Position numbers and translations under genes: made by a program. Below the pieces are notes generated by a model, which saw only the letters and a list, made by a program, of their open reading frames with translations, did no database searches and was not told where the DNA came from. From positions 1,980,001 through 2,012,000 of the forward strand of contig NZ_RSDW01000001.1 in assembly GCF_003945235.1 (NCBI RefSeq): a DNA stretch of 32,000 bases, read 5' to 3'. The stretch comes from Edaphobacter aggregans (GTDB lineage: Bacteria; Acidobacteriota; Terriglobia; Terriglobales; Acidobacteriaceae). This document shows positions 2,520 to 29,498 of this stretch, piece after piece. Position 1 is the stretch's first letter. Every line of letters begins with the position of its first letter.

Positions 2520-3182
2520 ATGAAACTCTATTCGAAGGCTTCGGTCTTTGGAGCAGCATTACTTGCTTTAACGACCGCTTTTGCGTCAGCAGATACGATT
2601 CAACTAGGTAGTTACCAGACCGGTGGTTCAAGCCTCGGTAATGGAAACACTGCTGTTGCTTTTGTGGGATCGTCTACCACAACATTTGCGCTCTCCCCAG
2701 ATGGTGTGTGGGCTCCCGCAGGAGCCAACTCCGTCTGGGTCTCCAATAATGCAGGATCAGGCCCAGGAGGAAGCGTTGTCGAGCCTACCGCTATCTATTC
2801 GTACACCACCACCTTCAATACCTTATCCAGCAATTACACAGGCTCTATCTCGGTACTGGCAGATGACACAGCCGATGTGATCTTCAACGGTCACATGCTG
2901 CAAGCAGAGGGCAGTATCGGTGCCGACACTCATTGCGCTAGCGGACCTCCTAACTGCAGCGTTCCAACATTGATTACCCTTCCGAGTGGGGACTTCCTGA
3001 CTGGCCTAAACACACTGCAATTCGATGTACAGCAAGAGATCGCTCAAACAGGACTTGATTTCTATGGATCAGTCTCGTCGCCAGTCTCCACCTCAGCCAT
3101 TCCAGAGCCGGGTACATTGTTGCTCTTGGGTACCGGTCTTATAGGATCTGCATTCTTACTAATGCGCAAGAGACTGGCATAG
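2520..3182 (+). CDS. PEP-CTERM sorting domain-containing secreted protein
   Basis: Signal peptide MKLYSKASVFGAALLALTTAFASA, a Gly/Ser/Thr-rich body, and a C-terminal IPEPGTLLLLGTGLIGSAFLLMRKRLA (PEP motif + TM + basic tail). AGGAGG at 2508-2513 lies 6 nt before the ATG. G+C is visibly lower and A/T-ending codons are more frequent than in the flanking genes. Confidence 0.85.
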   Translation: MKLYSKASVFGAALLALTTAFASADTIQLGSYQTGGSSLGNGNTAVAFVGSSTTTFALSPDGVWAPAGANSVWVSNNAGSGPGGSVVEPTAIYSYTTTFNTLSSNYTGSISVLADDTADVIFNGHMLQAEGSIGADTHCASGPPNCSVPTLITLPSGDFLTGLNTLQFDVQQEIAQTGLDFYGSVSSPVSTSAIPEPGTLLLLGTGLIGSAFLLMRKRLA

Positions 3183-10924: not shown

Positions 10925-12505
10925 CTACCGGACGTGATCCGGCCCCATCGCTGTGGTGTGTCCTTCAGAAGTATATCGTCCAATGCCGCCAGCCTTCATG
11001 ACGCCGAACGACGAAAGCCCCCGTGCCATCGTCAACGCAGGCTCATGCAACTCCGGCGCTCCTGCAACCTGCAACGGCGCATCCGACTGCACGCTCTGAA
11101 TCCGATCACGCAGTTTCCGCGCTAGCGCCAGATCAAACCCTTCGCTTACAAAAACTCCAGCGCCCGAGATCGAAAGATACACATCGCCTTCATTGGTCGA
11201 ATACACCTGCTCGCTATCGTCCAATTCATCCTTCGATCGCCGCACCACACCCGAGTACTTCCGCGGAATCTGCGCCGAATAGATACGCAAAAAAGTCCGC
11301 GCCGAGTCTGGATTCTTCCACCGCGAGCTATACAAAAGCCCAATCGATGCCGTGGATTCCTTCTGTGCGTCCGTCACGGCCGACTTGCGCTGCGCCGCGT
11401 AGTACACGCCACCGTTCCAAGCCGGAGCCAGCGCATCCGCAATCTCGCGTCCGCCAAACAGCTCCGCCAGAATCCGTACATCCAGCTCACCCATCACGCC
11501 CAGGTCATACGGCGTGTAATCCGCCTCGATCAGCGGATGAATATCCGGCAAATGCAGCACCGGCACCGGCGTATGCCTCATATAAGCCGCCGGATGCATA
11601 ATCTCGAAGCTCGACGACGGCGGATTCGCCAGCACGCCCGCAAACGCCGCCTCCTTACCCGCCTTCACCAGAATCGCCTGCTCAAACCCCAGCCCCTCGC
11701 TATAAGGAAACAGCAGCGACTCCTGCAACAGCAGCGGAGCCCGCGCCATCACTGGCGACCCGCCATTATCCGCCACCGAATCCTTCATCTTGTCCGCAAG
11801 CTCGGGAGCATCCGCAATCGTCTTCCCCGTCGACCGCATCGTGTAGTCGATAAACACGGCCATTGCCTGCCCTTCAGCTACAGCTTCACGAGCCGTCTCT
11901 GCCTCATCCACCTGCAGATGCTTGTTATCGTCGGCCACAGTGTACGAGATCCCCGTCAAGCTCACATCCGACCACTTCGTCAGCCCCACACGCTGATCCT
12001 GCAACGCGTGAGTCAACTCATGCGCCAGCACAGGCTTCTGCTCGTCCGGTTGAATCCAGTCCAGCAGATTCACCGTCTTCGTCTTGTTGTCATAGAAGCC
12101 CGCAATCTGCTCCGTCAGCAACGCAAGAAGAAACGGCCGCAGATGAAAATCCCGATCCAGCAGACCAAACTTCTTCAGCACAATCTCGGAACGCTCCATC
12201 CGCTTCGCGCTCTCATCCTCATCGAACTTCGCCTTGAGATAATGATTGACCTCATCCCGCGATATCAGCTTCCGCTTCACGCTGTGTTCGATAGGCAGCT
12301 TCGTATCACTGCTGACAAAGCCCAGAATCTCATCCACCGAGCGAAAGAGATCCTTCGCCTGATCCTTCGTCATCCGCGTCTCATTCGACGCATCAGCCGA
12401 GGCCTGCACACCGTCCAGCGTCCCCGCAAAACCCACCTGTGCCAGACCGACCAACAACACGGCCGCCGCAATCCAGCCCCTGCTCCAAACTCTTCGCTGC
12501 AACAT
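10925..12505 (-). CDS. Secreted hypothetical protein with HExxH zinc-metallopeptidase motif
   Basis: Signal peptide MLQRRVWSRGWIAAAVLLVGLAQVGFAG. A single HExxH occurs in VLAHELTHALQDQ. Codon bias matches - strand genes, so coding is well supported; the function is only motif-level. Confidence 0.55.
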   Translation of the reverse strand: MLQRRVWSRGWIAAAVLLVGLAQVGFAGTLDGVQASADASNETRMTKDQAKDLFRSVDEILGFVSSDTKLPIEHSVKRKLISRDEVNHYLKAKFDEDESAKRMERSEIVLKKFGLLDRDFHLRPFLLALLTEQIAGFYDNKTKTVNLLDWIQPDEQKPVLAHELTHALQDQRVGLTKWSDVSLTGISYTVADDNKHLQVDEAETAREAVAEGQAMAVFIDYTMRSTGKTIADAPELADKMKDSVADNGGSPVMARAPLLLQESLLFPYSEGLGFEQAILVKAGKEAAFAGVLANPPSSSFEIMHPAAYMRHTPVPVLHLPDIHPLIEADYTPYDLGVMGELDVRILAELFGGREIADALAPAWNGGVYYAAQRKSAVTDAQKESTASIGLLYSSRWKNPDSARTFLRIYSAQIPRKYSGVVRRSKDELDDSEQVYSTNEGDVYLSISGAGVFVSEGFDLALARKLRDRIQSVQSDAPLQVAGAPELHEPALTMARGLSSFGVMKAGGIGRYTSEGHTTAMGPDHVR

Positions 12506-12564
12506 ATCCCTCTCAATCGACCGCTATAATCAAGTGTACGCAGAGTTTCACGTTACCGCCCACC

Positions 12565-13611
12565 ATGGCCCCCACCGCCCAATCCGAAATCACCAACCCG
12601 GCCGCGACCCAGCTCAACGCTCTGCTCGACAAAGCCGCAATATTCCCCCTCAACGAAACCGGCTGGATCCGCGCCACCGGCGAAGACCGAGTCCGCTGGC
12701 TCAACGGCATGGTCACCAACTCCATTCAGGACCTCAAACCCGGCAAAGGCTCCTACAGCTTCGTTCTCAGCGTGCAAGGTCGCATCCAGGGCGACGCCTA
12801 CATCTACGCCGAACCCGACGCCCTCCTCCTCGAAACCGCTTCCGCGCAAGTTCCCGGCCTCATGGCCCTCCTCGACCGCTTCATCATCATGGACGACGTA
12901 GAGTTATCCGACGTCTCAGCCACCCGCTCCGGCCTATCCATCGCAGGCCCCGAAGCCGCAGCCCTCCTCGCAAAGCTCGGTCTAAACGTCGAACACCTCG
13001 CACCCCTGGACCTCCAAACCACCGAGTGGAACTCCACCCCCGTCACCATCATCCACGCTCACAGCCCACTCGTCCCCCGCTTCGAGCTCTGGGCCGACAC
13101 CGCAACCATCGCCTCCCTCTCGCAGGCCCTGCTCGCCGCCGGAGCCGTCACCACCGCCCCCGAGAGCCTCGAATACCTCCGCATCCTCGAAGGCACCCCG
13201 CTCTACGGCAAAGACATCCGCGACCGCGAGCTCCCTCAGGAGACCGCCCAGGCCCGCGCCCTGCACTTCAACAAGGGCTGCTACTTGGGTCAGGAGATCG
13301 TCGAGCGCATCCGTTCCCGCGGCAACGTACATCGCACCTTCAGCGCCTTCCGCCTCGAAGGAGATCTACCCCCGGCTGGATCGATGCTCGAAGCCGAAGG
13401 CAAACAAATCGGCGAACTAACCAGCACTGCCTCCATCCCGCTTCCATCAAATCCCGTGCAGCTCGCGCTAGGCTATGCACGCCGCGAAGCCTTGGACCGC
13501 GGCCTCCCGCTCACCTATTCCGGCGGCATCGCCATACCTATCGCCATCCCTTTTTCGCCCGCTGAAGCCCCAGGGCAATCACCAGCATCTGAATCTCCCG
13601 AAAGAGCCTAA
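12565..13611 (+). CDS. ygfZ: Folate-binding YgfZ/CAF17 family protein (GcvT-like aminomethyltransferase fold)
   Basis: GWIRATGEDRVRWLNGMVTNSI and the family signature FNKGCYLGQEIVERIRSRG. I take the ATG at 12565; the track start at 12439 would overlap the divergent upstream gene. Confidence 0.8.
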   Translation: MAPTAQSEITNPAATQLNALLDKAAIFPLNETGWIRATGEDRVRWLNGMVTNSIQDLKPGKGSYSFVLSVQGRIQGDAYIYAEPDALLLETASAQVPGLMALLDRFIIMDDVELSDVSATRSGLSIAGPEAAALLAKLGLNVEHLAPLDLQTTEWNSTPVTIIHAHSPLVPRFELWADTATIASLSQALLAAGAVTTAPESLEYLRILEGTPLYGKDIRDRELPQETAQARALHFNKGCYLGQEIVERIRSRGNVHRTFSAFRLEGDLPPAGSMLEAEGKQIGELTSTASIPLPSNPVQLALGYARREALDRGLPLTYSGGIAIPIAIPFSPAEAPGQSPASESPERA

Positions 13612-13613
13612 TT

Positions 13614-14240
13614 ATGTCCGAAAAGAACAAGCCCTTCGTCATCACCGACCGCCGCAAGTTCACCCTCGACGGCGAGCCCCGCCCCGACGCCGACCCATCC
13701 CCCGAGAAAGAAAGCCGCGAGCCCGCAGCAGCCGCGCCTCCGCCGGCACCCACTGCCATTCCCGAACCGCCCGCCGCACCACAAGCCGAAGAGCCGGAGC
13801 ACGACCTGCCCCCCGCGCCCACAGCCGAGCAGACCGAGCAGTCCCGCCGTGCCTACGAGATGACCGCCGAGCGCCTCGACACCGCGATCCGCGCTGCAAA
13901 CCCCGGCGCCGACCATCCCCCGGCCATGAGCTTCGACCAGCTCGTCCAGTCCGTCTACCTCACCGCCATGATGCAGCTCGGCGGGGCCACTCCCGAGGGC
14001 CAGCAGCCCCAGGTCGACCTCATGGGCGCGCGCCAAAGCATCGACATGCTGGGTGTCCTCGCTGAAAAAACCAAGGGCAACCTCACCCCAGACGAAGACC
14101 GCCTCCTCGAAAGCGCCCTCTTCGAACTCCGCATGGCCTTCCTCGAGATCACCCAGGCCCTCGCCCGCTCCGCCGCCGCCAAAGCCGGATCGCCCACAGG
14201 TGGCCGTCCAAACCCCGTCGGCCCGAGTATCGTTCGCTAA
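13614..14240 (+). CDS. DUF1844 domain-containing protein
   Basis: N-terminal KPFVITDRRKF, a Pro/Ala/Glu-rich linker, then FDQLVQSVYLTAMMQLGG...VDLMGARQSIDMLGVLAEKTKGNLTPDEDRLLESALFELRMAFLE. As I recall, this is the DUF1844 pattern. It starts 2 nt after the ygfZ-like stop. Confidence 0.7.
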   Translation: MSEKNKPFVITDRRKFTLDGEPRPDADPSPEKESREPAAAAPPPAPTAIPEPPAAPQAEEPEHDLPPAPTAEQTEQSRRAYEMTAERLDTAIRAANPGADHPPAMSFDQLVQSVYLTAMMQLGGATPEGQQPQVDLMGARQSIDMLGVLAEKTKGNLTPDEDRLLESALFELRMAFLEITQALARSAAAKAGSPTGGRPNPVGPSIVR

Positions 14241-14243
14241 ACG

Positions 14244-15059
14244 ATGGAGGCAACCCTCACCTTTCTCGGCACCGGAACCTCCATGGGCGTCCCCACGCTC
14301 GGTTGCGACTGCGCCGTCTGCACCTCCGCCGTCTCTCCCGGCGGAGACCCGCGCAACCGCCGCACCCGGCCCTCCATCCGCCTCGCCTACAACGACCACA
14401 TCGTCCTCATCGACACTGGCCCCGACTTCTACGCTCAGGCCATCCGCGAGAACCTCCGCCACGTCGACGCCGTCCTCTACACCCACGGCCACGCTGACCA
14501 CATCATGGGCTTCGACGACCTGCGCCCCCTCAGCTTCCACCACAAAGGCAACCTGCCCATCTACGCCGACGACCACACCGCCGCCACCATCGAGCGTGTC
14601 TTCGACTACACCTTCCGCACCGAAAACCGCCACCCCACCAGCGCCCGCGTCACCATCCACCGCATCGACCCCACCCCCGGCGCCGGCTTCGACCTCTTCG
14701 GAGCCTGTTTCCGCCGCATCCCCGTCACCCACGGCCGCCAGCAGATCACCGGCTACCGCTTCGGCAGCGCCGCCTACATCACCGACATGAGCGACATCCC
14801 GGACGAGAGTATCCCGCTCCTGCAAGACCTCGACGTCCTCATCCTCGACGCCCTGCGCCGCGACCCGCACTTCAGCCACTCGCACTTGGAAAAATCCATC
14901 GGCTTCGTCGAAAAACTAAAACCCCGCCGGGCCCTCTTCACCCACATGAGTCACGACCTCGACCACGCAGCCACCGAAGCCGAACTCCCACCCCACATCC
15001 GTCTGGCCTACGATGGCCAGCAGATCACCTTCGAGATTGCCGCGGAGAGTACTGCATGA
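14244..15059 (+). CDS. MBL-fold metallo-hydrolase (PhnP/GPMB-like)
   Basis: TFLGTGTSMGVPTLGCDCAVC, metal motif YTHGHADHIMGFDDL, and later H/D ligands (FTHMSHD). Confidence 0.8.
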   Translation: MEATLTFLGTGTSMGVPTLGCDCAVCTSAVSPGGDPRNRRTRPSIRLAYNDHIVLIDTGPDFYAQAIRENLRHVDAVLYTHGHADHIMGFDDLRPLSFHHKGNLPIYADDHTAATIERVFDYTFRTENRHPTSARVTIHRIDPTPGAGFDLFGACFRRIPVTHGRQQITGYRFGSAAYITDMSDIPDESIPLLQDLDVLILDALRRDPHFSHSHLEKSIGFVEKLKPRRALFTHMSHDLDHAATEAELPPHIRLAYDGQQITFEIAAESTA

Positions 15060-15823
15060 GAATCCTTCTGAAACTTTTGCTGCTGCTGTCCGCCAGTCAG
15101 CTTGCCCTCGCACAGCGCGCTACCTTTACTCTGCCCGAGACAGGACAAGTCATCACGTTCTCATTTCACCCCGTGTCGGACCCTAGCGATAACTTCGACT
15201 CTGTTGACGTGACCTCCGCTGACAAACACTTTCATTTCCCGGCAAAGAATACAGTCGCTCGGTTTCCTGCAACCGCTAAAGAACGGCGAGCAGAAGGATT
15301 TTGGATCGACATCCCGGGCTTAAAACTTCACCCCTCGCGATACTTTCTCGTCGGCAACTATGGAACCGCTACTGATGTTCATTCCCTTCTGTTCTTTGTT
15401 GGGGCAGCTTACGCTAGCGAAGCATCCCCGTTACTTGTCCTTGGCTTTTCTGCAACGGGCGAGCCATACAAGGTACTTGAGCGTCAATATCTGGATGTAA
15501 CTTCATTTCAATTGGCTCCCGATGGCACTCCCCTTATAGTCGGCAAAGACGCTCTCTCAGAGGTTATGCGCGGAGATGGTGGCAACGGCTCCGCCAAGCC
15601 ATACGCGACTACCTACGACCCCTTCTCAGTGTTCACATTGCGTTCAGGAGAGAAGGCTGTTTATTCGTTAGAGGAATCTCGTAACTACAACCTGAAGCAC
15701 TATGTATGGGCAGGTCCTCACTCTCGCGAAGACTTTGCGGTCTTCTATAACATTCCTGGGCATCCGAAACCGCTTGGTGCGCCGATTTCGCGTGCGGAAA
15801 CTCTTCTCGGAGGAAGTAAATAA
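15056..15823 (+). CDS. Hypothetical secreted protein (no recognisable domain)
   Basis: Signal peptide MRILLKLLLLLSASQLALAQ. The ATG overlaps the MBL gene stop (ATGA). G+C is lower and codon endings are mixed, unlike neighbouring + strand genes. I recognise no motif. Confidence 0.6.
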   Translation: MRILLKLLLLLSASQLALAQRATFTLPETGQVITFSFHPVSDPSDNFDSVDVTSADKHFHFPAKNTVARFPATAKERRAEGFWIDIPGLKLHPSRYFLVGNYGTATDVHSLLFFVGAAYASEASPLLVLGFSATGEPYKVLERQYLDVTSFQLAPDGTPLIVGKDALSEVMRGDGGNGSAKPYATTYDPFSVFTLRSGEKAVYSLEESRNYNLKHYVWAGPHSREDFAVFYNIPGHPKPLGAPISRAETLLGGSK

Positions 15824-20860: not shown

Positions 20861-20957
20861 GATGTGGTGAGTGACCGCGCCCATCAGGACATTCAAGCCA
20901 AGCGCGACCCAAAGGAGAATCGCCGCGGCACAGTCAGATACCATCATACTTGATTCC

Positions 20958-21713
20958 ATGCCCCCCGAAAAGCGCACCCCTCGAATCCTCGGAGTGATCC
21001 CCGCCCGCCTCGCCTCCACGCGACTCCCCCGCAAAGTCCTCCGCAACATCGCCGGTCGCCCAATGCTTGCATGGGTTTACGAGGCCGCCTTGGCTTGCCC
21101 CCAACTCGACCAGGTCATCATCGCCACCGACTCCGACGAAGTCGCCGCCCTCTGCCATCAACAAAACTGGCCCGTCCAACTCACCTCGCCCGACCTCCCC
21201 AGCGGCACCGACCGCCTCCACGCCGTCTCCCAGCTCATCGACGCCGACATATACGTCAACATCCAGGGCGATGAACCCCTCCTCAAGCCCGAACACCTCA
21301 CCGCCCTCCTCCGCCCCTTCACCCGGCCCGAAGTCGAGGTCTCCACCCTAAAAGTCCGCTGCACCCCCGACAACATCAACAACCCCAACGCCGTAAAAGT
21401 AGTCACCGCCGCCGACGGTCGAGCCCTCTACTTCTCCCGCGCCACCATCCCCTACAACAGAGATCACGACCGCGACGGAACCACCCCCCAATACTGGAAG
21501 CACCTCGGCCTCTACGCCTACCGCAAAGCCGCCCTCCAGAGCTTCCCCACCCTTCCCCCCAGCACCCTCGAGCACACCGAGCGTCTCGAACAACTCCGCT
21601 TCCTCGAAAACAACATCCACATCCACGTCGAACCCACCGACCACGACACCATAGGCGTAGACACCGAAGAAGACCTCCAAAAAGTCGCGGCCATCCTTCT
21701 GCAACGGCGCTGA
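20958..21713 (+). CDS. kdsB: 3-deoxy-manno-octulosonate cytidylyltransferase (CMP-Kdo synthetase)
   Basis: ILGVIPARLASTRLPRKVL, GTDRL, VNIQGDEPL and HLGLYAYR. The ATG at 20958 is preferred; the track GTG at 20871 would abut the tRNA. Confidence 0.88.
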   Translation: MPPEKRTPRILGVIPARLASTRLPRKVLRNIAGRPMLAWVYEAALACPQLDQVIIATDSDEVAALCHQQNWPVQLTSPDLPSGTDRLHAVSQLIDADIYVNIQGDEPLLKPEHLTALLRPFTRPEVEVSTLKVRCTPDNINNPNAVKVVTAADGRALYFSRATIPYNRDHDRDGTTPQYWKHLGLYAYRKAALQSFPTLPPSTLEHTERLEQLRFLENNIHIHVEPTDHDTIGVDTEEDLQKVAAILLQRR

Positions 21714-22090: not shown

Positions 22091-22756
22091 CTACGCCAAA
22101 GGAGTAAACCGCAATTCCAGCCCATCCCCCGCTACAGTAACCCCCAGCCTCTCCAGCGACTCAACCACCCAATCCGCCTCCGCCAACTCCTCAGCCGAGT
22201 GGGTCCCCAGCACTCCCAGCACCCGACACCCCGCAGCCACCCCAGCCCCTACCCCCGAAGGAGCATCCTCCACCACAATGCACTCCTCCGGCGAAAATCC
22301 AAGCAACCCAGCACCCCGGCGATACGGCTCCGGGTCAGGCTTCCCCCGCTCCACCATATCGGCACTAATCAGCCGAGCAGGAACCGGCAACCCAGCCGCC
22401 TCCAGCCGCCCCAGCAAAAGCCGCGTCGTAGCCGAAGTCACAATCGCCCACCGATCCAACGGAAGGCTCTCCATCAACTCCTTCACCCCGGGCAGAACCT
22501 TCAGATCCGCCGTGTCCTCCATCTCCATGTCTTCAATCACGCGAAGCCCCTCCTCCGCGTCGATGTCCGGCCTCAGACTCCGCACAATCTCAATCGCCCG
22601 CATTCCATGCGGAACCTCATACGTATCCGCGTTCGGAATGTCATACAGCTTCGCCCACCGCTGCCAGCACCGCACCACAGACCCGATGGAGCTGATCAGC
22701 ACCCCATCCATATCAAACAAAATTCCCTTCGTCTCAACCACAACCGGCTGACTCAA
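22091..22756 (-). CDS. HAD-superfamily hydrolase (sugar-phosphatase / beta-phosphoglucomutase-like, subfamily IA)
   Basis: Motif I ILFDMDGVLISS, motif II IVTSAT, motif III K (RGKPDPEPY), motif IV VVEDAPSGVGAGVAAG. The start overlaps the pmm stop by 4 nt. Confidence 0.8.
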   Translation of the reverse strand: MSQPVVVETKGILFDMDGVLISSIGSVVRCWQRWAKLYDIPNADTYEVPHGMRAIEIVRSLRPDIDAEEGLRVIEDMEMEDTADLKVLPGVKELMESLPLDRWAIVTSATTRLLLGRLEAAGLPVPARLISADMVERGKPDPEPYRRGAGLLGFSPEECIVVEDAPSGVGAGVAAGCRVLGVLGTHSAEELAEADWVVESLERLGVTVAGDGLELRFTPLA

Positions 22757-24195
22757 ACAGCACTCCCTTGCAATACAAACTGTTGCGCCGCCTCAAGCAC
22801 CTTGGCGACCGACTCCGTTGAACAACTCTCGCAATACACCCGCAGCAGTGGCTCCGTACCCGAAGCCCTCAGCAACAACCACGTCTCAGCAGCATTCGGC
22901 TTCGAACCGCAATCAGGATTCTCGAGGAAGAACTTAATGCCATCCATCGTCTCCACCCGCAGAACCTCCATCCCGGCAAAGTCCTTCACTCCAGCCTTCG
23001 CCCGGGCAATCGCAGACTGCTTCAACGCCTCATCAATATGCATATCCACGCGCCCATACTGGTGCTCGCCAAACTCCTCCTGCAGCGCCGCCACAAGCTC
23101 ACCCAGCGTCTTCTTCTCATCCGCCATCACATTGGCCAGCAGAAGCGAATTCAGTAACCCATCGCGCTCCGGAAGATGCCGGCTAATACCCACCCCACCC
23201 GACTCCTCGCCCCCAATCAAAATCTCCTTCTCCAGCATCAGGTCGCACACATACTTGAACCCGATCCCATGCTCATTCAGCTTCCGCCCATACTTTGCCG
23301 CAATGCGGTCGATCATCTTCGTCGTATTGAACGCCCGCGTCACTTCACCAGGCCACTTCTTCCGCTCCAGCAACCAATACATCAGGATGGAAAACACCTT
23401 ATGCGCATCGACAACGTTCCCATGCTCATCCACCGCGCCAATGCGATCCGCATCGCCATCCGTAATCAACCCGGCATCGCACTTCTCCGCAACCACAGCA
23501 AGCTGCGTCTCACGAATATGCGGCAGAATCGGCTCCGGATTGATCCCCGGAAACAGCGGATTCACCTCATTACGAATCTCCACAAACGGAATCCCAGCCC
23601 GCGTAAAGATCCCCGCAATCACCCCACGCCCAGCCCCATACATCACATCGATCAAAAACTTATATCCCGACTTACGAATCGCATCGAGATCGACAAACCG
23701 CTCAATCGCGGCAATGTAATCCGGATTGAAGTCCACCTCTTCGATCTTCGCTTTCGTCGCACTCACCGGCAGCGGCTTCTCCAGATAACTTTCAATCGAA
23801 GCCATGATCGAAGGCTTGCCTGACCCGCCATAACTAGCCTTGTACTTAACCCCGTTCCACTCCGCAGGATTGTGGCTCGACGTAATCATCACGCCACCAG
23901 CAGCCTTCCTCTCCCGCACCGCATACGACAGTGCAGGTGTCGGTGTAATCCCCGAAGCAAACGCCACAGGAATCCCCGCTCCAGCCAACACCTCAGCCAC
24001 AACCCGCGCAAACGACCGCGACCCAAACCGCGTGTCATACCCAATACAAACGCCCGCCGAAGCATCCTCATGCGCCAGCACATAGTTCGCAATCGCCGCC
24101 GCGGCCACCCTCACATTGGCATAGGTAAAGTCGTCAGCGATAATCCCCCGCCACCCATCGGTCCCAAACTTCACCACCGTCTTCGTCTCAACCAT
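22753..24195 (-). CDS. Phosphomannomutase/phosphoglucomutase (alpha-D-phosphohexomutase family)
   Basis: FGTDGWRG, active-site loop TSSHNPAEWNG, Mg loop TDGDADRIGAV, sugar loop GGEESGG and phosphate loop LRASGTEPLLRVY. Confidence 0.88.
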   Translation of the reverse strand: MVETKTVVKFGTDGWRGIIADDFTYANVRVAAAAIANYVLAHEDASAGVCIGYDTRFGSRSFARVVAEVLAGAGIPVAFASGITPTPALSYAVRERKAAGGVMITSSHNPAEWNGVKYKASYGGSGKPSIMASIESYLEKPLPVSATKAKIEEVDFNPDYIAAIERFVDLDAIRKSGYKFLIDVMYGAGRGVIAGIFTRAGIPFVEIRNEVNPLFPGINPEPILPHIRETQLAVVAEKCDAGLITDGDADRIGAVDEHGNVVDAHKVFSILMYWLLERKKWPGEVTRAFNTTKMIDRIAAKYGRKLNEHGIGFKYVCDLMLEKEILIGGEESGGVGISRHLPERDGLLNSLLLANVMADEKKTLGELVAALQEEFGEHQYGRVDMHIDEALKQSAIARAKAGVKDFAGMEVLRVETMDGIKFFLENPDCGSKPNAAETWLLLRASGTEPLLRVYCESCSTESVAKVLEAAQQFVLQGSAV

Positions 24196-24224
24196 ATTTT
24201 GCTTTTCTGCTCCGTATTCAGCGG

Positions 24225-25385
24225 CTAGATAAGATCTTCTCTGCCCTTGGTCTTCAGTTCTGCAACCACCTTGCCCACATCCTGCGACCGCTCGCGCGTC
24301 GTAATCAGCAAAGCATCCCCGGTCTGCACCACCACTAGATCGCTCACGCCCACCAACGCAATCACCTTACCCGGAGCATAAACATAGTTCCCGCACGAAT
24401 CGATCGAGATCGTCAGCGGATCTTGCCCATCGATCACATTGGCGATCGACACCATATCCGGCGGACACGCTGCCACATGTTCATGCAGCGCCGACCAGCA
24501 CCCTAGATCGTTCCACGCAAAATCACCCGGCAGACAATAAATCCCGGAGTTCATCTCACCCTTGGCCGACCGGGGCTCCAGCACCGCATAATCGATGCTG
24601 ATGTTCTCGCACTGCGGATACTCCTCGGCAAACACCCGCTCAAACTCCGCCGTCCCATACGCCGCGGCAATCTTCTCCAGCAGCGGAGCCATCGCCGGCC
24701 GAAACTCCCGTATCGCCCCAGCAAGCGTCCGCGCACTCCACAGAAAAATCCCGCCGTTCCAGGCATAATTTCCCGAAGCAACAAACTCCTCCGCCCGCGC
24801 GCGATCCGGCTTCTCCGTAAACCGCTTCACCCGCCGCACTTCGATCCCACTGTCAGCCACCGCAGGATCATCCACCACTCCACCCAGCTCGATATACCCA
24901 TAACCCGTCTCAGCCCGCGCCGGAGGCACACCCAACACCACGACCTTGTCCCCACTCGCAGCCAACGCCACGCCCGCTCGCACCACCTCCGCAAACCGAG
25001 CCGTGTCCTTAATCGCATGGTCCGAAGGAAAGATCCCAATCACCGTCTCCGGCGCAGTCCTCTCCAGCAAAAACGCAGCCAGCGCACACGCAGGAGCCGT
25101 ATTTCTCGCAGCCGGCTCACTCAGAATCCGCTCCCGAGGCACCTCCGGCAACTGCTCCCCGATCACATCATCCAGCAAATCATTCGTGATCACCCAAACA
25201 TCCGACGCATCTGCCAGCGGCAACAGACGATCCAGCGTCTGCTGAATCATCGTGCGCTGCCCATCCAGCGCCAGCACCTGCTTCGCCTTGGCCTTACGAC
25301 TCCGTGGCCAAAACCGCGTCCCACTCCCTCCTGCAAGAATCACAGGAGCAAACCGCACGTCAGATTTACTGCTTCCCATTGGCAT
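24225..25385 (-). CDS. manC: Mannose-1-phosphate guanylyltransferase
   Basis: ILAGGSGTRFWPRSR pyrophosphorylase signature, FTEKPD and NGGIFLW. The length (386 aa) fits a transferase without the cupin isomerase domain. Confidence 0.85.
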   Translation of the reverse strand: MPMGSSKSDVRFAPVILAGGSGTRFWPRSRKAKAKQVLALDGQRTMIQQTLDRLLPLADASDVWVITNDLLDDVIGEQLPEVPRERILSEPAARNTAPACALAAFLLERTAPETVIGIFPSDHAIKDTARFAEVVRAGVALAASGDKVVVLGVPPARAETGYGYIELGGVVDDPAVADSGIEVRRVKRFTEKPDRARAEEFVASGNYAWNGGIFLWSARTLAGAIREFRPAMAPLLEKIAAAYGTAEFERVFAEEYPQCENISIDYAVLEPRSAKGEMNSGIYCLPGDFAWNDLGCWSALHEHVAACPPDMVSIANVIDGQDPLTISIDSCGNYVYAPGKVIALVGVSDLVVVQTGDALLITTRERSQDVGKVVAELKTKGREDLI

Positions 25386-26709: not shown

Positions 26710-27492
26710 CTATCTGCCAATCAGCCGCAGAATCTGACCCGCAGCATCGGCAACATCGGTCCGGCACCCAGCGTAACAAGTGGCACCCGCCACCGCATGT
26801 TGGAATACCCTCACCAAATCTGGCGATTCCGCCAAAACATGAGGCGTGTTCCGCAATAGGGTCAGCAATCCTTCGCTTTGAGGCATCGCCGCCACACTCC
26901 AGGTACATTCAGGCCGATACTCCAGCGCCAAAACCCAGCCAACCGGCGCCGGCGCATCCCCAATCGAAGCATTGCATTCGCCCGGCAGCACCGGGAATTG
27001 CTCAGGGCAGCCATTCCGCAGCAACAAAGGCCGAGGATATGGGTGCACCCGCCCCTCGGAATCGATCAGCGCATACTCATCGGAAAAATAGGTAGCGCCC
27101 CGCCGCAACAGCTCTGCCACCAGCGACGATTTTCCCGAATGCGTGACCCCCGGCAGCAGCAACACCCGTTCGCCCCACAGAACGGCGCCCGCATGAACGG
27201 CGTGCAGCGTCGTCAGGTGCTGGATCACAGCCTCGTCCAACACCCTGATGAGGTCCGGCACCAGGCTGATCGCTTGACCAGCCGATGCCACCACCGCATC
27301 GTCAACTGACAACTGAAATTGATCCGAAACCCGAACTAGGCGGATGGAGATATCAGGCTTCTCCGCGCCGCCAACCAATCGCGGTAGCGAAGGAAAAACA
27401 TAGCGTTCTAGGATGGCATACGTTTCAAGGCACTCCGCCGCCACTTGAATATGGCAGCCAAAAGCGCGAACCTCAAAACCGAGAGTGGGCAT
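26710..27492 (-). CDS. HPr kinase/phosphorylase-related P-loop kinase (HprK C-terminal-domain-like)
   Basis: VHAGAVLWGERVLLLPGVTHSGKSSLVAELLRRGATYFSDEYALID aligns by eye with the HprK catalytic domain (VHGVLV..G.GVLI.G.SGVGKSE.ALEL..RGH.L.ADD). The Walker A GVTHSGKS is at 27127-27150. GAGG lies 4 nt upstream of the ATG. Confidence 0.7.
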   Translation of the reverse strand: MPTLGFEVRAFGCHIQVAAECLETYAILERYVFPSLPRLVGGAEKPDISIRLVRVSDQFQLSVDDAVVASAGQAISLVPDLIRVLDEAVIQHLTTLHAVHAGAVLWGERVLLLPGVTHSGKSSLVAELLRRGATYFSDEYALIDSEGRVHPYPRPLLLRNGCPEQFPVLPGECNASIGDAPAPVGWVLALEYRPECTWSVAAMPQSEGLLTLLRNTPHVLAESPDLVRVFQHAVAGATCYAGCRTDVADAAGQILRLIGR

Positions 27493-27506
27493 AGCCTCGC
27501 GTCAGT

Positions 27507-27532
27507 AATGTCTGTCCAGAAAAACAGACATT
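27507..27532 (-). promoter_or_regulatory. Intercistronic RNA hairpin just upstream of the kinase ribosome-binding site
   Basis: aatgtctgt (27507-27515) is the perfect reverse complement of acagacatt (27524-27532), with an 8-nt loop. On the mRNA strand it ends 14 nt before the kinase AUG. Confidence 0.5.
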
Positions 27533-27645
27533 CATAATCCTGCACACAGCGATCGGAGCAAGATGGCTTGGAGCAGATGGCTCGATTGCGAATAAGCCGA
27601 GGGATGCAAAGAAGACGTTCTTGTCTCTGCACCCACTCAAAATGT

Positions 27646-28092
27646 TCAGCTATGCGGCTTCGGAACTGGCACAGGTGTGGGTGGGGGCGGAGGCGTGGGC
27701 GTCGGACGTATAACCGAAGACGCTTTTTGCGCGTAGGCTCGTTGGTCTGCAACAGATAACGCCACGACGAGCGGCAGCGCGGCAGCGCTCACCGTTCCGA
27801 TGAATTCGCGACGGGTCGCCTTTGAGGCCCCCCATGTCTTCACCAGTTTCTTGTCGTTCAGTTGCAGAATCGCCTCTTCTGCCAGTTCTTCATTTACCGC
27901 TGGGTCGAACGAGCGCTGCATGCCTTCTGTCACTCTGGCGAGTGTCGTCGGATCACTGCATGCGTCCCAGGCTGCGCCGGCCATCGCGTTCAATGCGAAA
28001 ACCGTCTCGTTTTTAGCGTCGACAATAACTTTTGAACCGTCGGGAAGTTGATTGATTACCAAGGCATCTGAATTGGTGCGTTCTACCTGCAT
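27646..28092 (-). CDS. PqqD-family (RRE-like) domain protein fused to an internal twin-arginine/TM segment and a Pro-rich C-terminal tail
   Basis: GAGG lies 7 nt upstream of the ATG. Residues ~8-84 fit the PqqD pattern (VIVDAKNETVFALNAMAGAAWDACSDPTTLARVTEGMQRSFDPAVNEELAEEAILQLNDKKLV). TRREFIG follows at 27796-27816, then the hydrophobic TVSAAALPLVVALSVA, then AYA-Q, then the tail QKASSVIRPTPTPPPPPTPVPVPKPHS. Confidence 0.7.
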   Translation of the reverse strand: MQVERTNSDALVINQLPDGSKVIVDAKNETVFALNAMAGAAWDACSDPTTLARVTEGMQRSFDPAVNEELAEEAILQLNDKKLVKTWGASKATRREFIGTVSAAALPLVVALSVADQRAYAQKASSVIRPTPTPPPPPTPVPVPKPHS

Positions 28093-28352
28093 ATACTGAC
28101 CTCTTTTTTTGGAGTCTCAGCAAGGACGGGCCCACTCTCGGAATTCCGAAAGTGTACGCCCGCATGGTTATTTTGTGGCGGATTCTTTAGTAACCTGATG
28201 TATTTTTCTCACTCCCCCTGCAACGCCTTGCGGGGAGCGCCAATTCCGTGTAACCTCCTCTCTTCCAAGACATGGATCGCGATAGCGCTTTGCACGAGTC
28301 AAAGTGCAAGCTGCAACATATTGCGACATATGCAGCGAAGCGGAGGGGACGA

Positions 28353-29498
28353 ATGCAAGCCGATTGCGAGTCTTGCGAACTGCTGCTCCGTGCAATTGCC
28401 CAACCGGCCAATGCAGAGCAAATTCAGCGCGCTGCTGTTAAAGTTCGCGACTGGGATTCGGTCCTCAGGTTGGCGCACGAGCACCGTGTGTCCTCGATGC
28501 TTTTCTCGCGACTCGCAAACATGGTTCCCGCGGTCCCGCTGATCGTGCAGAACCGCCTTCGCGCCGAGTACGACAGCAACATGTTTCACAATCTCGCGAA
28601 TGCAGTGGAATTGCTTGCCGTACTCAAAGTACTCGAACACGAGATGATTCCGGCCATGCCGTTTAAGGGTGTCGTGCTGGGAGCGTCCATCTACCACGAC
28701 CCTACGACGCGCCCCGCCGGCGATCTGGATCTGCTCATCCACTACAGGCATCTCAAGCCAGCCATGGCTATTCTCCTCGAACGAGGATACGAACTGAAAA
28801 CTCTCGCGCGTGCCGATGGAATCCCGTTCGATCCGAACTACACCTACGAATACCGTTTCGAACGGAAAACTGACGGAATGATATTGGAGCTTGGCTGGAG
28901 ACTTGAGCTTGCCCAGCCAAAATTCAAACGCGATCTCGGTCTCGATTGGGTATGGCCAAGCCGGCGAACCACCATGCTGGCAGGTGCCGAAGTTCCAGAC
29001 ATGAGCCCCGAGATCACCTTGCTGGTGCTTTGTCTGCATGGGGGCAAGCACGCGTGGTCGCGGCTCATCTGGATCTGTGACGTCGCGCAGCTACTGGCTT
29101 CGTCTCCCGGCCTCGATTGGAAAGAAGTCGTCCACGAAGCGAAGAAGTCAGGACTATGCCGCACGCTCGCCTTGGGTGTATTGCTTGCGCATCAAGTCGC
29201 GGGCGCCACAGTTCCTCCGACTGTCCTGCGGCGCTTTGAAGCGGACACGACCGCACGCAACTTGGCGCAACATTTCCAGCAGAATTTGTTTGCCGCGCCG
29301 GGCATCACACCCATGGGCCGCATTCCTTACACCGTCCAGTTGCTCGACTTCCGCGATCAAGTCAGGTGGCTCTTGTCCTTTGACTTCCTGCGGCCAAATG
29401 AGAGAGATCGAGCAGCCCTCCAACTACCGAAGCCGCTCCACGCCCTCTACTATCTGATTCGCCCCTTCCGCATCTTTTGGGATAGATCGGCAAGGTAA
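28353..29498 (+). CDS. Nucleotidyltransferase family protein (PF14907 / NTP_transf_5-like, pol-beta superfamily)
   Basis: FKGVVLGASIYHDPTTRPAGDLDLLI (G..x..DxD; Asp codons at 28722-28730) and an N-terminal ELLLRAI...DWDSVLRLAHEHRVSSMLF helical region, which I recall as typical of this family. The ATG at 28353 has GGAGG 6 nt upstream and is preferred over the track start at 28272. Confidence 0.7.
   Translation: MQADCESCELLLRAIAQPANAEQIQRAAVKVRDWDSVLRLAHEHRVSSMLFSRLANMVPAVPLIVQNRLRAEYDSNMFHNLANAVELLAVLKVLEHEMIPAMPFKGVVLGASIYHDPTTRPAGDLDLLIHYRHLKPAMAILLERGYELKTLARADGIPFDPNYTYEYRFERKTDGMILELGWRLELAQPKFKRDLGLDWVWPSRRTTMLAGAEVPDMSPEITLLVLCLHGGKHAWSRLIWICDVAQLLASSPGLDWKEVVHEAKKSGLCRTLALGVLLAHQVAGATVPPTVLRRFEADTTARNLAQHFQQNLFAAPGITPMGRIPYTVQLLDFRDQVRWLLSFDFLRPNERDRAALQLPKPLHALYYLIRPFRIFWDRSAR

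Follow-up and report, generated by a model that had tools for sequence, protein, structure and literature searches.

In a 32,000-nucleotide stretch of the genome of the soil acidobacterium Edaphobacter aggregans (hereafter, the window), a 148-amino-acid (aa) open reading frame (ORF) on the minus strand (27646..28092; start codon, ATG) encodes a protein in which a PqqD-type recognition element (RRE) of peptides made by ribosomes and modified after translation (RiPPs) is followed by an internal signal resembling those of the twin-arginine translocation (Tat) pathway and by a variable tail. This fusion gene belongs to a three-gene module of Terriglobales that also encodes an HprK-like kinase and an NTP_transf_5 nucleotidyltransferase (NTase). 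The reading that we tentatively prefer, on the basis of sequence comparisons, is that the fusion protein may be a self-contained export substrate of this module, with the RRE kept in the cytoplasm, the tail exported, and residue Ser126 modified before Tat export. An identical E. aggregans protein is deposited at NCBI (RSL16173.1/WP_125484820.1), with no name other than "coenzyme PQQ synthesis protein D"; other members of the family are publicly annotated only as "PqqD family protein" or "hypothetical protein." Indexing of the translation confirmed the residue layout given in the original prediction, an earlier reading of the window by a model that saw its letters and ORFs: a TRREFIG motif, a 16-residue hydrophobic (h-) region spanning T100 to A115 (TVSAAALPLVVALSVA), an AYA|Q site, and a tail of 27 aa (Q122-S148; 27649-27729) that holds 11 Pro and ends in Ser. 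The part of this tail that follows the conserved junction is a 22-residue Pro-rich stretch with PKPHS at its end. The codon of residue 84 is GTG (27841-27843), also as described there.

The fusion protein joins an RRE to a conserved internal Tat-type signal

A genome scan that used one genome per species and covered the close Terriglobales family yielded 58 loci. A frameshift or an assembly error, named in the original prediction as a possible origin of the fusion, is ruled out because these 58 independent loci share the single-ORF architecture, as do hundreds of metagenomic homologues; a nonconserved junk extension, also named there, is likewise ruled out by this shared architecture. RR, P107, Q117, the AxA site, and S126 are retained in hundreds of homologues. 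The N-terminal ~87 residues are an RRE/PqqD peptide-binding domain, as shown by Pfam, AlphaFold2 (AF2), and Foldseek together. Pfam PF05402 (PqqD) matches residues 22 to 75 with 26.5 bits (gathering score, 23.4). In the AF2 model, built on an alignment of 51 homologues, the predicted local distance difference test score (pLDDT) averages 79.8 and rises to ~90 in the RRE, whose elements are strands 11-15, 21-25, and 30-34 and helices 36-44, 51-61, and 68-80. Among PDB structures, Foldseek ranks the lasso-peptide RRE TbiB1 with its bound leader first (5v1v_A; E, 7.4e-4; TM score, 0.71 on the target), followed by the PqqD structure 5sxy. The PqqD fold that had been put forward for residues ~8 to 84, pending a fold check, is thereby established. 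Between this domain and the signal lies a Ser/Gly linker. Known RREs are either separate proteins or domains within modifying enzymes.

A search of 5.8 billion proteins retrieved 867 homologues, nearly all 135 to 180 aa long; counts out of 120 refer hereafter to the closest 120 cluster representatives. A profile search of 1.84 billion representatives returned 180 clusters at E<1e-10 and 1762 at E<1e-3; some of the weaker matches are probably ordinary PqqD proteins. The fusion family is large and centered on Terriglobales. The twin arginines are present in 120/120 of the closest representatives, in 116 of them within the pattern [STN]RRxF[ILVM], and precede an uncharged segment of 18 to 19 residues (mean Kyte-Doolittle value, 1.97) and then six residues of the form [DE]Q[RK]A[YH]A. 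Within the alignment of 51 sequences, R94, R95, P107, Q117, and S126 are invariant, A119, A121, and A124 are at least 90% conserved, and the region C-terminal to S126 cannot be aligned; R94 and R95 are still invariant among 64 sequences with identities down to 24%. Because it is conserved in homologues, the motif pattern lies far beyond chance. The full-length members in the top 150 of the profile search all carry an internal S-RR-x-[LMFV]-L, often as SRRxxLK, the textbook Tat motif, followed by 15 to 20 uncharged residues and then by the junction E-Q-[RK]-A-[YFH]-A-Q-x-[AS]-G-S-G. Among the 149 distant representatives, 23 have [ST]RRxxLK. Tat models find this segment in part of the family: TIGR01409 picks it out in 17 of 64 diverse members (E<=1; best E, 0.0036), and the formate_TAT model of formate dehydrogenase Tat signals matches 10 of the 64.

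Three features of Tat signals can be read in the sequence: the S/T-R-R-x-F-L-K-type motif, a moderately hydrophobic h-region with 13 or more uncharged residues, and a c-region that contains a basic residue and AxA. The summed Hessa dG of the h-region is +1.9; for the polytopic acyltransferase encoded in the same window, the three best helices score between -1.2 and -0.45 and the weaker helices between +2.3 and +4.7. This moderate hydrophobicity would suit a Tat h-region and would also be compatible with a weak anchor. The family-specific junction motif EQRAYA-xx-A-x-S, with its invariant Q117 and S126, is conserved well beyond the needs of a signal peptidase. Alignment of homologues, proposed in the original prediction as a test for a leader/core pattern, returned a divided answer: the RR motif and the AxA site are conserved while the tail varies, as anticipated, but only 27 of the 120 tails end in Ser, the others ending in P, L, R, F, V, or H.

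Variable tails and larger passengers point to exported cargo

Family tails are 8 to 49 aa long with 33% Pro and fall into recurring classes: Pro-rich tails with end motifs such as PKPHS (in the E. aggregans protein), IRLPKLF, or ILPFL; two-Cys loops of the form PC-x(3-7)-C; Gly-rich stretches followed by a hydrophobic end, GILGWLLGLLGL or LWWILHLLGLV; and the further classes RPxAHVSxPPNSQD, CGIIKKxFGxC, and Trp-ended. The nearest relative shares the tail class in 123 of 183 proteins, versus 17% by chance (neighbors <90% identical in the N-terminal part); by this comparison of sequences, the tail classes are heritable. Sixteen of the 58 loci hold two to four tandem fusion genes, each with its own RRE and with different tail classes, next to one shared kinase/NTase pair, an arrangement which argues that the fusion proteins are substrates or payloads rather than enzymes or adaptors. 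The family shows two traits of RiPP precursors, a conserved N-terminal part with a hypervariable C-terminal part and several precursor genes per enzyme set.

In distant relatives with the same RRE and signal, the passengers are much longer (median, ~54 aa; maximum, ~260 aa), and some of them have 100 to 260 aa. They contain SpaA/CarboxypepD_reg Ig-like domains, a Peptidase_S74 chaperone domain, poly-Thr or Thr-Pro linkers, Gly-rich repeats, and Cys-rich ends, and these proteins retain SRRxxLK, the h-region, and EQRAYAQxAGSG beside the RRE. Passengers of this kind are characteristic of extracytoplasmic proteins and speak for export of the C-terminal part. Because the distant passengers are this long and some match folded domains, "exported cargo" seems, on sequence grounds, a better description of the C-terminal part than a strict RiPP core. 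The leader/core-like precursor put forward in the original prediction is supported in its outline (conserved N-terminal part, unalignable tail, heritable classes, tandem copies, and conserved partner genes) but not as regards the C-terminal Ser as the kinase target: the invariant Ser is S126, five residues past the AxA site, and not the terminal one.

The tandem arrays lie at L033:6001-8450, L035:3613-6390, L032:4854-6363, and 13 other loci. The L033 array combines poly-Pro, a tail ending ...HRWW, and two Cys-containing tails, the L014 array combines a hydrophobic end and a two-Cys loop, and L032 also holds a truncated copy. Uninterrupted runs of ~30 to 35 Pro are found in tails at L031:6001-6495, L035:3613-4149, and L037:5207-5686; runs of this kind would need EF-P for translation and probably expand by CCN repeat slippage.

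A three-gene cassette with conserved partner enzymes

All 58 loci are from Acidobacteriota (Terriglobales), mostly Acidobacteriaceae, and include Tunturiibacter, Edaphobacter, Alloacidobacterium, Terracidiphilus, and Pseudacidobacterium. A kinase homologue is adjacent to the fusion gene in 54/58 loci, so that the link which the original prediction drew to the neighboring HprK-like kinase is a conserved one; 50/58 loci have a divergent NTP_transf_5 gene next to the fusion gene, and 49/58 have both partners, at least three of the loci without one or both partner genes ending at a contig edge. Since the flanking genes are entirely different between genomes, the fusion gene, the kinase gene, and the NTP_transf_5 gene can be regarded as a self-contained module (coordinates in Table 1). 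The kinase gene still adjoins the fusion gene in the distant relatives L005, L007, L068, and L069, where the third gene of the cassette can vary: it encodes NTP_transf_5 in L069 and a GT2/GT25 glycosyltransferase in L005. The latter, a 476-aa protein (L005:1848-3278), is encoded between the fusion gene, whose cargo consists of two SpaA Ig-like domains, and the kinase gene; the 4.2-kb contig of L005 carries no NTP_transf_5 gene. Next to the L069 cassette, a 531-aa ParA/AAA_31-type ATPase (L069:8651-10246) might be a further component of the module.

The product of the downstream gene is 100% identical to EDE15_1683 of E. aggregans and has, according to its models, a PEPCK/HprK P-loop kinase fold. 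Its best family match is TIGR04352 (HprK-related kinase A), with an E of 1.7e-12 and 47.1 bits against a cutoff of 200, and the alignment is restricted to the P-loop region (89-160). The AF2 model, built with database homologues, reaches a pLDDT of 91.9, and Foldseek matched it to ATP-dependent PEPCK (E, ~1e-5) and to HprK/P (1ko7, 2qmh, and 1kkm; E, ~1e-3); it is this fold search that settles the fold. PDB sequence searches with the single kinase and NTase sequences returned nothing at E<=10, and the kinase profile gave weak P-loop matches only. Residues H100, G102, G120, K121, D138, and E139 are invariant, and the sequence contains a Walker A motif, GxxGxGKS. As for the divergently encoded NTase, the 408-aa ORF as read has no exact copy in a collection of 15 billion proteins, and its homologues in other loci are 346 to 381 aa long; translation of the annotated product probably starts at another codon.

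Table 1. Features of the fusion gene and its cassette (window coordinates)
Feature	Coordinates	Strand	Basis
Whole ORF: RRE, internal Tat-like signal, and variable tail (148 aa)	27646..28092	-	ORF reading; WP_125484820.1 at NCBI, with PqqD as its only annotation
GAGG Shine-Dalgarno-like site, 7 nt 5' of the ATG	28100..28103	-	Direct sequence reading
PqqD/RRE domain, ~residues 8-87: three strands, three helices, and a flanking strand	27832..28071	-	Pfam, AF2, Foldseek
Twin-arginine motif T93-R-R-E-F-I-G99; R94 and R95 invariant	27796..27816	-	Alignments; TIGR01409 best local match
h-region T100-A115, moderately hydrophobic, with invariant P107	27748..27795	-	Alignment, hydrophobicity
c-region D116-Q117-R118-A119-Y120-A121: basic residue and AxA; Q117 invariant	27730..27747	-	Alignment
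Junction Q122-K-A124-S-S126, with invariant S126 as a candidate site of modification and A124 conserved in at least 90%	27715..27729	-	Alignment
Variable tail V127-S148: Pro-rich linker and PKPHS end motif; one of several heritable classes	27649..27714	-	Tail comparison
Structured intergenic spacer between fusion gene and kinase gene, two hairpins	27493..27645	-	Fold z-score, -3.25
HprK/PEPCK-fold P-loop kinase (260 aa, EDE15_1683), downstream of fusion gene	26710..27492	-	TIGR04352, AF2, Foldseek, context
NTP_transf_5 (PF14907) nucleotidyltransferase (408 aa), divergently transcribed	28272..29498	+	Pfam, 184 bits; adjacent in 50/58 loci

Proposed route and alternative readings

If the fusion protein is an export substrate, as we tentatively prefer, the signal would insert in an N-in/C-out orientation, with the RRE staying in the cytoplasm and the tail reaching the periplasm. 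Before export, the RRE would act in cis, either docking both enzymes onto the chain of which it is part or, alternatively, holding the signal/junction segment as a strand on its beta-sheet, as it would a leader peptide. The kinase would phosphorylate the invariant Ser126 of the junction, and the NTP_transf_5 protein would then elaborate the phosphate, by analogy with the action of PsmK and PsmN on pseudomycoidin (see below). Ser126 appears from the alignments to be the most plausible modification site because, together with Q117, it is conserved beyond the needs of signal peptidase and is common to all cargo types. The modified product would leave by the Tat pathway, i.e., by a posttranslational route that tolerates bulky cargo, which makes sense for a product decorated in the cytoplasm. 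Signal peptidase would then probably cut at AYA|Q, freeing the 27-mer (predicted monoisotopic mass before modification, 2808.57 Da) and leaving an RRE-signal stub in the membrane; cleavage is the least certain of these steps. A leader bound to an RRE adds a fourth strand beside beta3 (PMC7470986). In the AF2 model, residues 109 to 113 form a beta-strand, which needs a partner strand within the chain, and residues 114 to 125 form a helix packed in the chain. As a sign that the RRE holds the signal/junction segment in cis, this modeled strand is weak evidence, because its pLDDT is only 59 to 76 and AF2, which has no membrane, tends to dock hydrophobic segments. In mutual information with average product correction, a measure confounded here by subfamily/phylogenetic signal, the highest-ranking pairs between regions include 33-110 and 32-111.

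Several observations weigh against Tat export of a modified tail. The twin arginines stand at residues 94 and 95, behind a folded domain, and not within the first ~35 residues as in Tat signals, and the internal start that would restore an N-terminal position is not conserved. In the E. aggregans protein, TIGR01409 finds its best local match exactly over the expected segment (residues 93-112) but with 12.1 bits, below the cutoff of 16.7. The hydrophobicity of the h-region overlaps that of weak transmembrane helices, and an uncleaved anchor fits it equally well. Low-complexity linkers begin directly after the junction, as is typical of tethered and not of released products; they favor a tethered product, which might be held by an uncleaved anchor or else by the modified Ser. 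Furthermore, the candidate modification site is read from conservation only, the modeled strand is weak evidence for the reasons given above, the residue pairs are confounded by subfamily signal, and the kinase falls far below the TIGR04352 cutoff (47 versus 200 bits).

In a second reading, also considered in the original prediction, the signal is an uncleaved anchor. The fusion protein would then be a bitopic inner membrane protein, with a cytoplasmic RRE, one transmembrane helix, and a periplasmic Pro-rich rod bearing a tip motif, that might work as a periplasm-spanning tether or a display stalk, the kinase and the NTase acting on the RRE or being recruited by it. We consider this less likely but a serious rival. 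Pro, Thr, or Gly linkers follow the junction in all members, as in tethered proteins; poly-Pro stretches extend to ~35 residues, and the hydrophobic or aromatic tips of many tails (ILPFL, LPKLF, WWWPF, and GILGWLLGLLGL) could contact another layer. The overlap in Hessa dG and the positive charges on the N-side are likewise as an anchor would have them. However, both alanines of the AxA site are at least 90% conserved at the end of a c-region of typical length (6 residues), the h-region is less hydrophobic than the good transmembrane anchors in the same window, and the invariant S/T-RR-x-F-L motif exceeds what the positive-inside rule asks for. In a third reading, the protein is entirely cytoplasmic: the "h-region" would be a built-in pseudoleader to which the RRE binds in cis, and the tail, once modified, would serve within the cell. 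This accords with the modeled strand 109-113 and helix 114-125 and with the two residue pairs, insofar as these escape the subfamily signal. It is nonetheless improbable: the cargo of relatives is of extracytoplasmic type (SpaA Ig domains, poly-Thr linkers, paired Cys, and Cys-rich ends), the succession of RR, 18 to 19 uncharged residues, and a basic AxA region is the layout of an export signal and is found by Tat models, and docking of hydrophobic segments is what AF2 tends to produce when no membrane is present.

Two more specific proposals of the original prediction fare worse. The first follows a lasso-type logic, in which the 27-aa tail is a RiPP core and its C-terminal Ser is phosphorylated by the HprK-like kinase. 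The tail in the window does end in Ser, PKPHS ends recur in a small subclass, and lasso-peptide kinases phosphorylate a C-terminal Ser (PMC6993621); against this stand the scarcity of Ser-ended tails (27/120), the passengers of 100 to 260 aa in relatives, and the lack of a lasso cyclase or leader protease among the scanned window ORFs and in the inspected loci, which together make it very improbable. The other proposal, that the gene yields two products, the full-length protein and a 65-aa classical Tat prepeptide started at the GTG of residue 84, is hardly credible. GTG is somewhat enriched at this Val codon (36 of 75 gene copies, versus 28% of other Val codons), but the remaining 39 copies have GTC, GTA, GTT, or ATC, and the internal start is rejected because a start codon is kept in only 36/75. 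The window sequence also has no Shine-Dalgarno-like sequence upstream of this GTG, in agreement with the earlier remark that a convincing ribosome binding site is missing; Shine-Dalgarno-like matches before this codon in other copies are consistent with coding for conserved QEQ/QDK residues.

Relation to known systems

The pseudomycoidin cluster encodes an HprK-family kinase, PsmK, that phosphorylates Ser, and an "uncharacterized NTP transferase," PsmN, that is then required for the phosphorylated product to receive a hexose; in one related lasso cluster, a glycosyltransferase replaces the NTase (PMC6993621). The cassette resembles PsmK/PsmN and PadeK of paeninodin in combining an HprK-family kinase, an NTP transferase (PsmN being likened by description only), and a PqqD-type RRE, and the GT2 gene that stands in for NTP_transf_5 in L005 parallels the NTase/glycosyltransferase swap. 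It differs from them in the fusion of the RRE with the presumed substrate and in the position of the conserved Ser, which is internal (S126) instead of C-terminal. Neither a lasso cyclase (C), an Asn-synthetase-like macrolactam synthetase, nor a transglutaminase-like leader protease (B/B2) was found among those window ORFs that were scanned with Pfam or NCBIfam models or in the gene lists of L001, L003, and L069. The scanned ORFs of the 32-kb window included no ABC exporter, a further difference from the lasso systems, and no radical SAM enzyme. The absence of B and C genes among the scanned ORFs rules out a lasso cluster. Six-frame lists of intergenic ORFs from the window, L001, and L003, compared by eye and not by a formal tblastx search, shared no conserved small precursor ORF.

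A second point of reference is the HPr-rel-A system, an NCBIfam database definition that pairs HprK-related kinase A (TIGR04352) with a PqqD family peptide chaperone (TIGR04353); we found no publication describing it. The likeness lies in an RRE/PqqD gene beside a gene for an HprK-like P-loop kinase, as seen in 54/58 loci and in distant L005, L007, L068, and L069. TIGR04353 matches 29 of 64 family members (E<=1), and one relative, P0213, reaches its cutoff (36.1 versus 35), so that the fusion family can be placed as a branch or sister of the HPr-rel-A PqqD proteins; for the window protein, TIGR04353 gives no match at E<=10. The differences are that the TIGR04353 model, with 74 positions, covers the RRE only, whereas here a signal, a junction, and cargo follow in the same chain, and that the RRE and the kinase of the window both score below the curated cutoffs. 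The extension formed by signal and cargo is not part of any curated model.

Compared with Tat signal peptides, including Tat-inserted signal anchors, the internal segment has the same S/T-RR-x-F-L(-K) motif, moderate h-region, basic c-region, and AxA, but it stands behind a folded domain of ~90 residues and is accompanied by an extra invariant EQ...S junction motif. The redox enzyme maturation proteins TorD, DmsD, and NapD are cytoplasmic Tat chaperones that bind the Tat signal and delay export until maturation, a role like that proposed here for the RRE; they act in trans, and their folds are unrelated to the RRE. Borosins such as OphMA carry a modifying module and a C-terminal core in one polypeptide and act in cis, as the fusion protein would, but their fused module is a catalytic methyltransferase and they have no export signal, whereas here only a recognition domain is fused. 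Bufferins are RiPP precursors that use a general-secretion (Sec) signal (PMC11626156); they and related MNIO RiPPs have Sec or lipoprotein signal peptides (PMC11626156; PMC13056109). The shared features are a precursor modified in the cytoplasm, export by general secretion, and an RRE-type partner (PMC11626156); in those systems, however, the Sec signal is N-terminal and the RRE partner is separate, whereas the fusion protein has an internal, Tat-like signal and brings the RRE within the precursor itself.

All the parts are of known kinds, namely, an RRE, a Tat-type signal, an HprK-like kinase, and NTP_transf_5, and RiPPs exported by general secretion are known as well. We found no description in the literature of a protein in which an RRE precedes an internal Tat-type signal and is joined to its presumed substrate, nor of a cis-fused, RRE-fold equivalent of the Tat chaperones, and the view of the original prediction that no RiPP with these elements in a single polypeptide has been described thus agrees with our survey. 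If the proposed reading is true, recognition, modification, and export would be coupled in one chain in a way that is new, and the RRE would be the cis counterpart of chaperones that bind Tat signals. A broader form of the proposal, which is possible but doubtful, is that these proteins form an undescribed class of ribosomal products in which each precursor comes with an RRE and a Tat signal of its own. As a cis adaptor/chaperone, the RRE would hold the signal/junction segment and recruit both enzymes, Tat export would be licensed by phospho-(glyco/nucleotid)ylation of the invariant junction Ser, and Pro-rich, disulfide-looped, or hydrophobic peptides or Ig-like domains would be released by signal peptidase, or tethered by the modified Ser, in the acidobacterial envelope. 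Heritable tail classes and tandem paralogues offer a ready-made set of candidate exported peptides, and the pair of HprK-like kinase and NTP_transf_5 provides a test case for phospho-glycosylation of the PsmK/PsmN type outside lasso peptides. With three genes, the system should be easy to reconstitute.

Other features of the cassette and the window

None of the three cassette proteins had a PADLOC match, and an antiphage defense function was set aside. The spacer between the fusion gene and the kinase gene is strongly structured: its minimum free energy is -61.4 kcal/mol over 176 nt (27485-27660; z, -3.25), and an 11-bp perfect stem lies just upstream of the kinase start. The spacer sequence is not conserved in the related loci, no U-tract terminator was called in it, and no known RNA element was found in the cassette by Rfam at E<=1.

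Other genes of the window have housekeeping functions and encode a Mur ligase, an LD-carboxypeptidase, a DAP epimerase, PBP1, an S41 peptidase, an FAD synthetase, a KdsB-like enzyme, a PMM/PGM protein, an aminotransferase, and CoaD. A few kilobases from the cassette lie the gene of the PMM/PGM-type phosphomutase with a 386-aa ORF (22753-25385, minus strand) and that of the KdsB-like cytidylyltransferase (20871-21713, plus strand); a link between these genes and the cassette is unlikely because the flanks differ in other genomes. Pfam at E<=1e-4 gave no match for the ORFs at 10925-12505 (minus), 12534-13565 (plus), 13608-14885 (minus), and 15056-15823 (plus), not all of which can be genes because some overlap on opposite strands. 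Finally, a 220-aa protein encoded at 2520-3182 (plus strand) carries a C-terminal PEP-CTERM motif (Pfam, 27.5 bits), and an exosortase-type sorting system is therefore probably present in E. aggregans.

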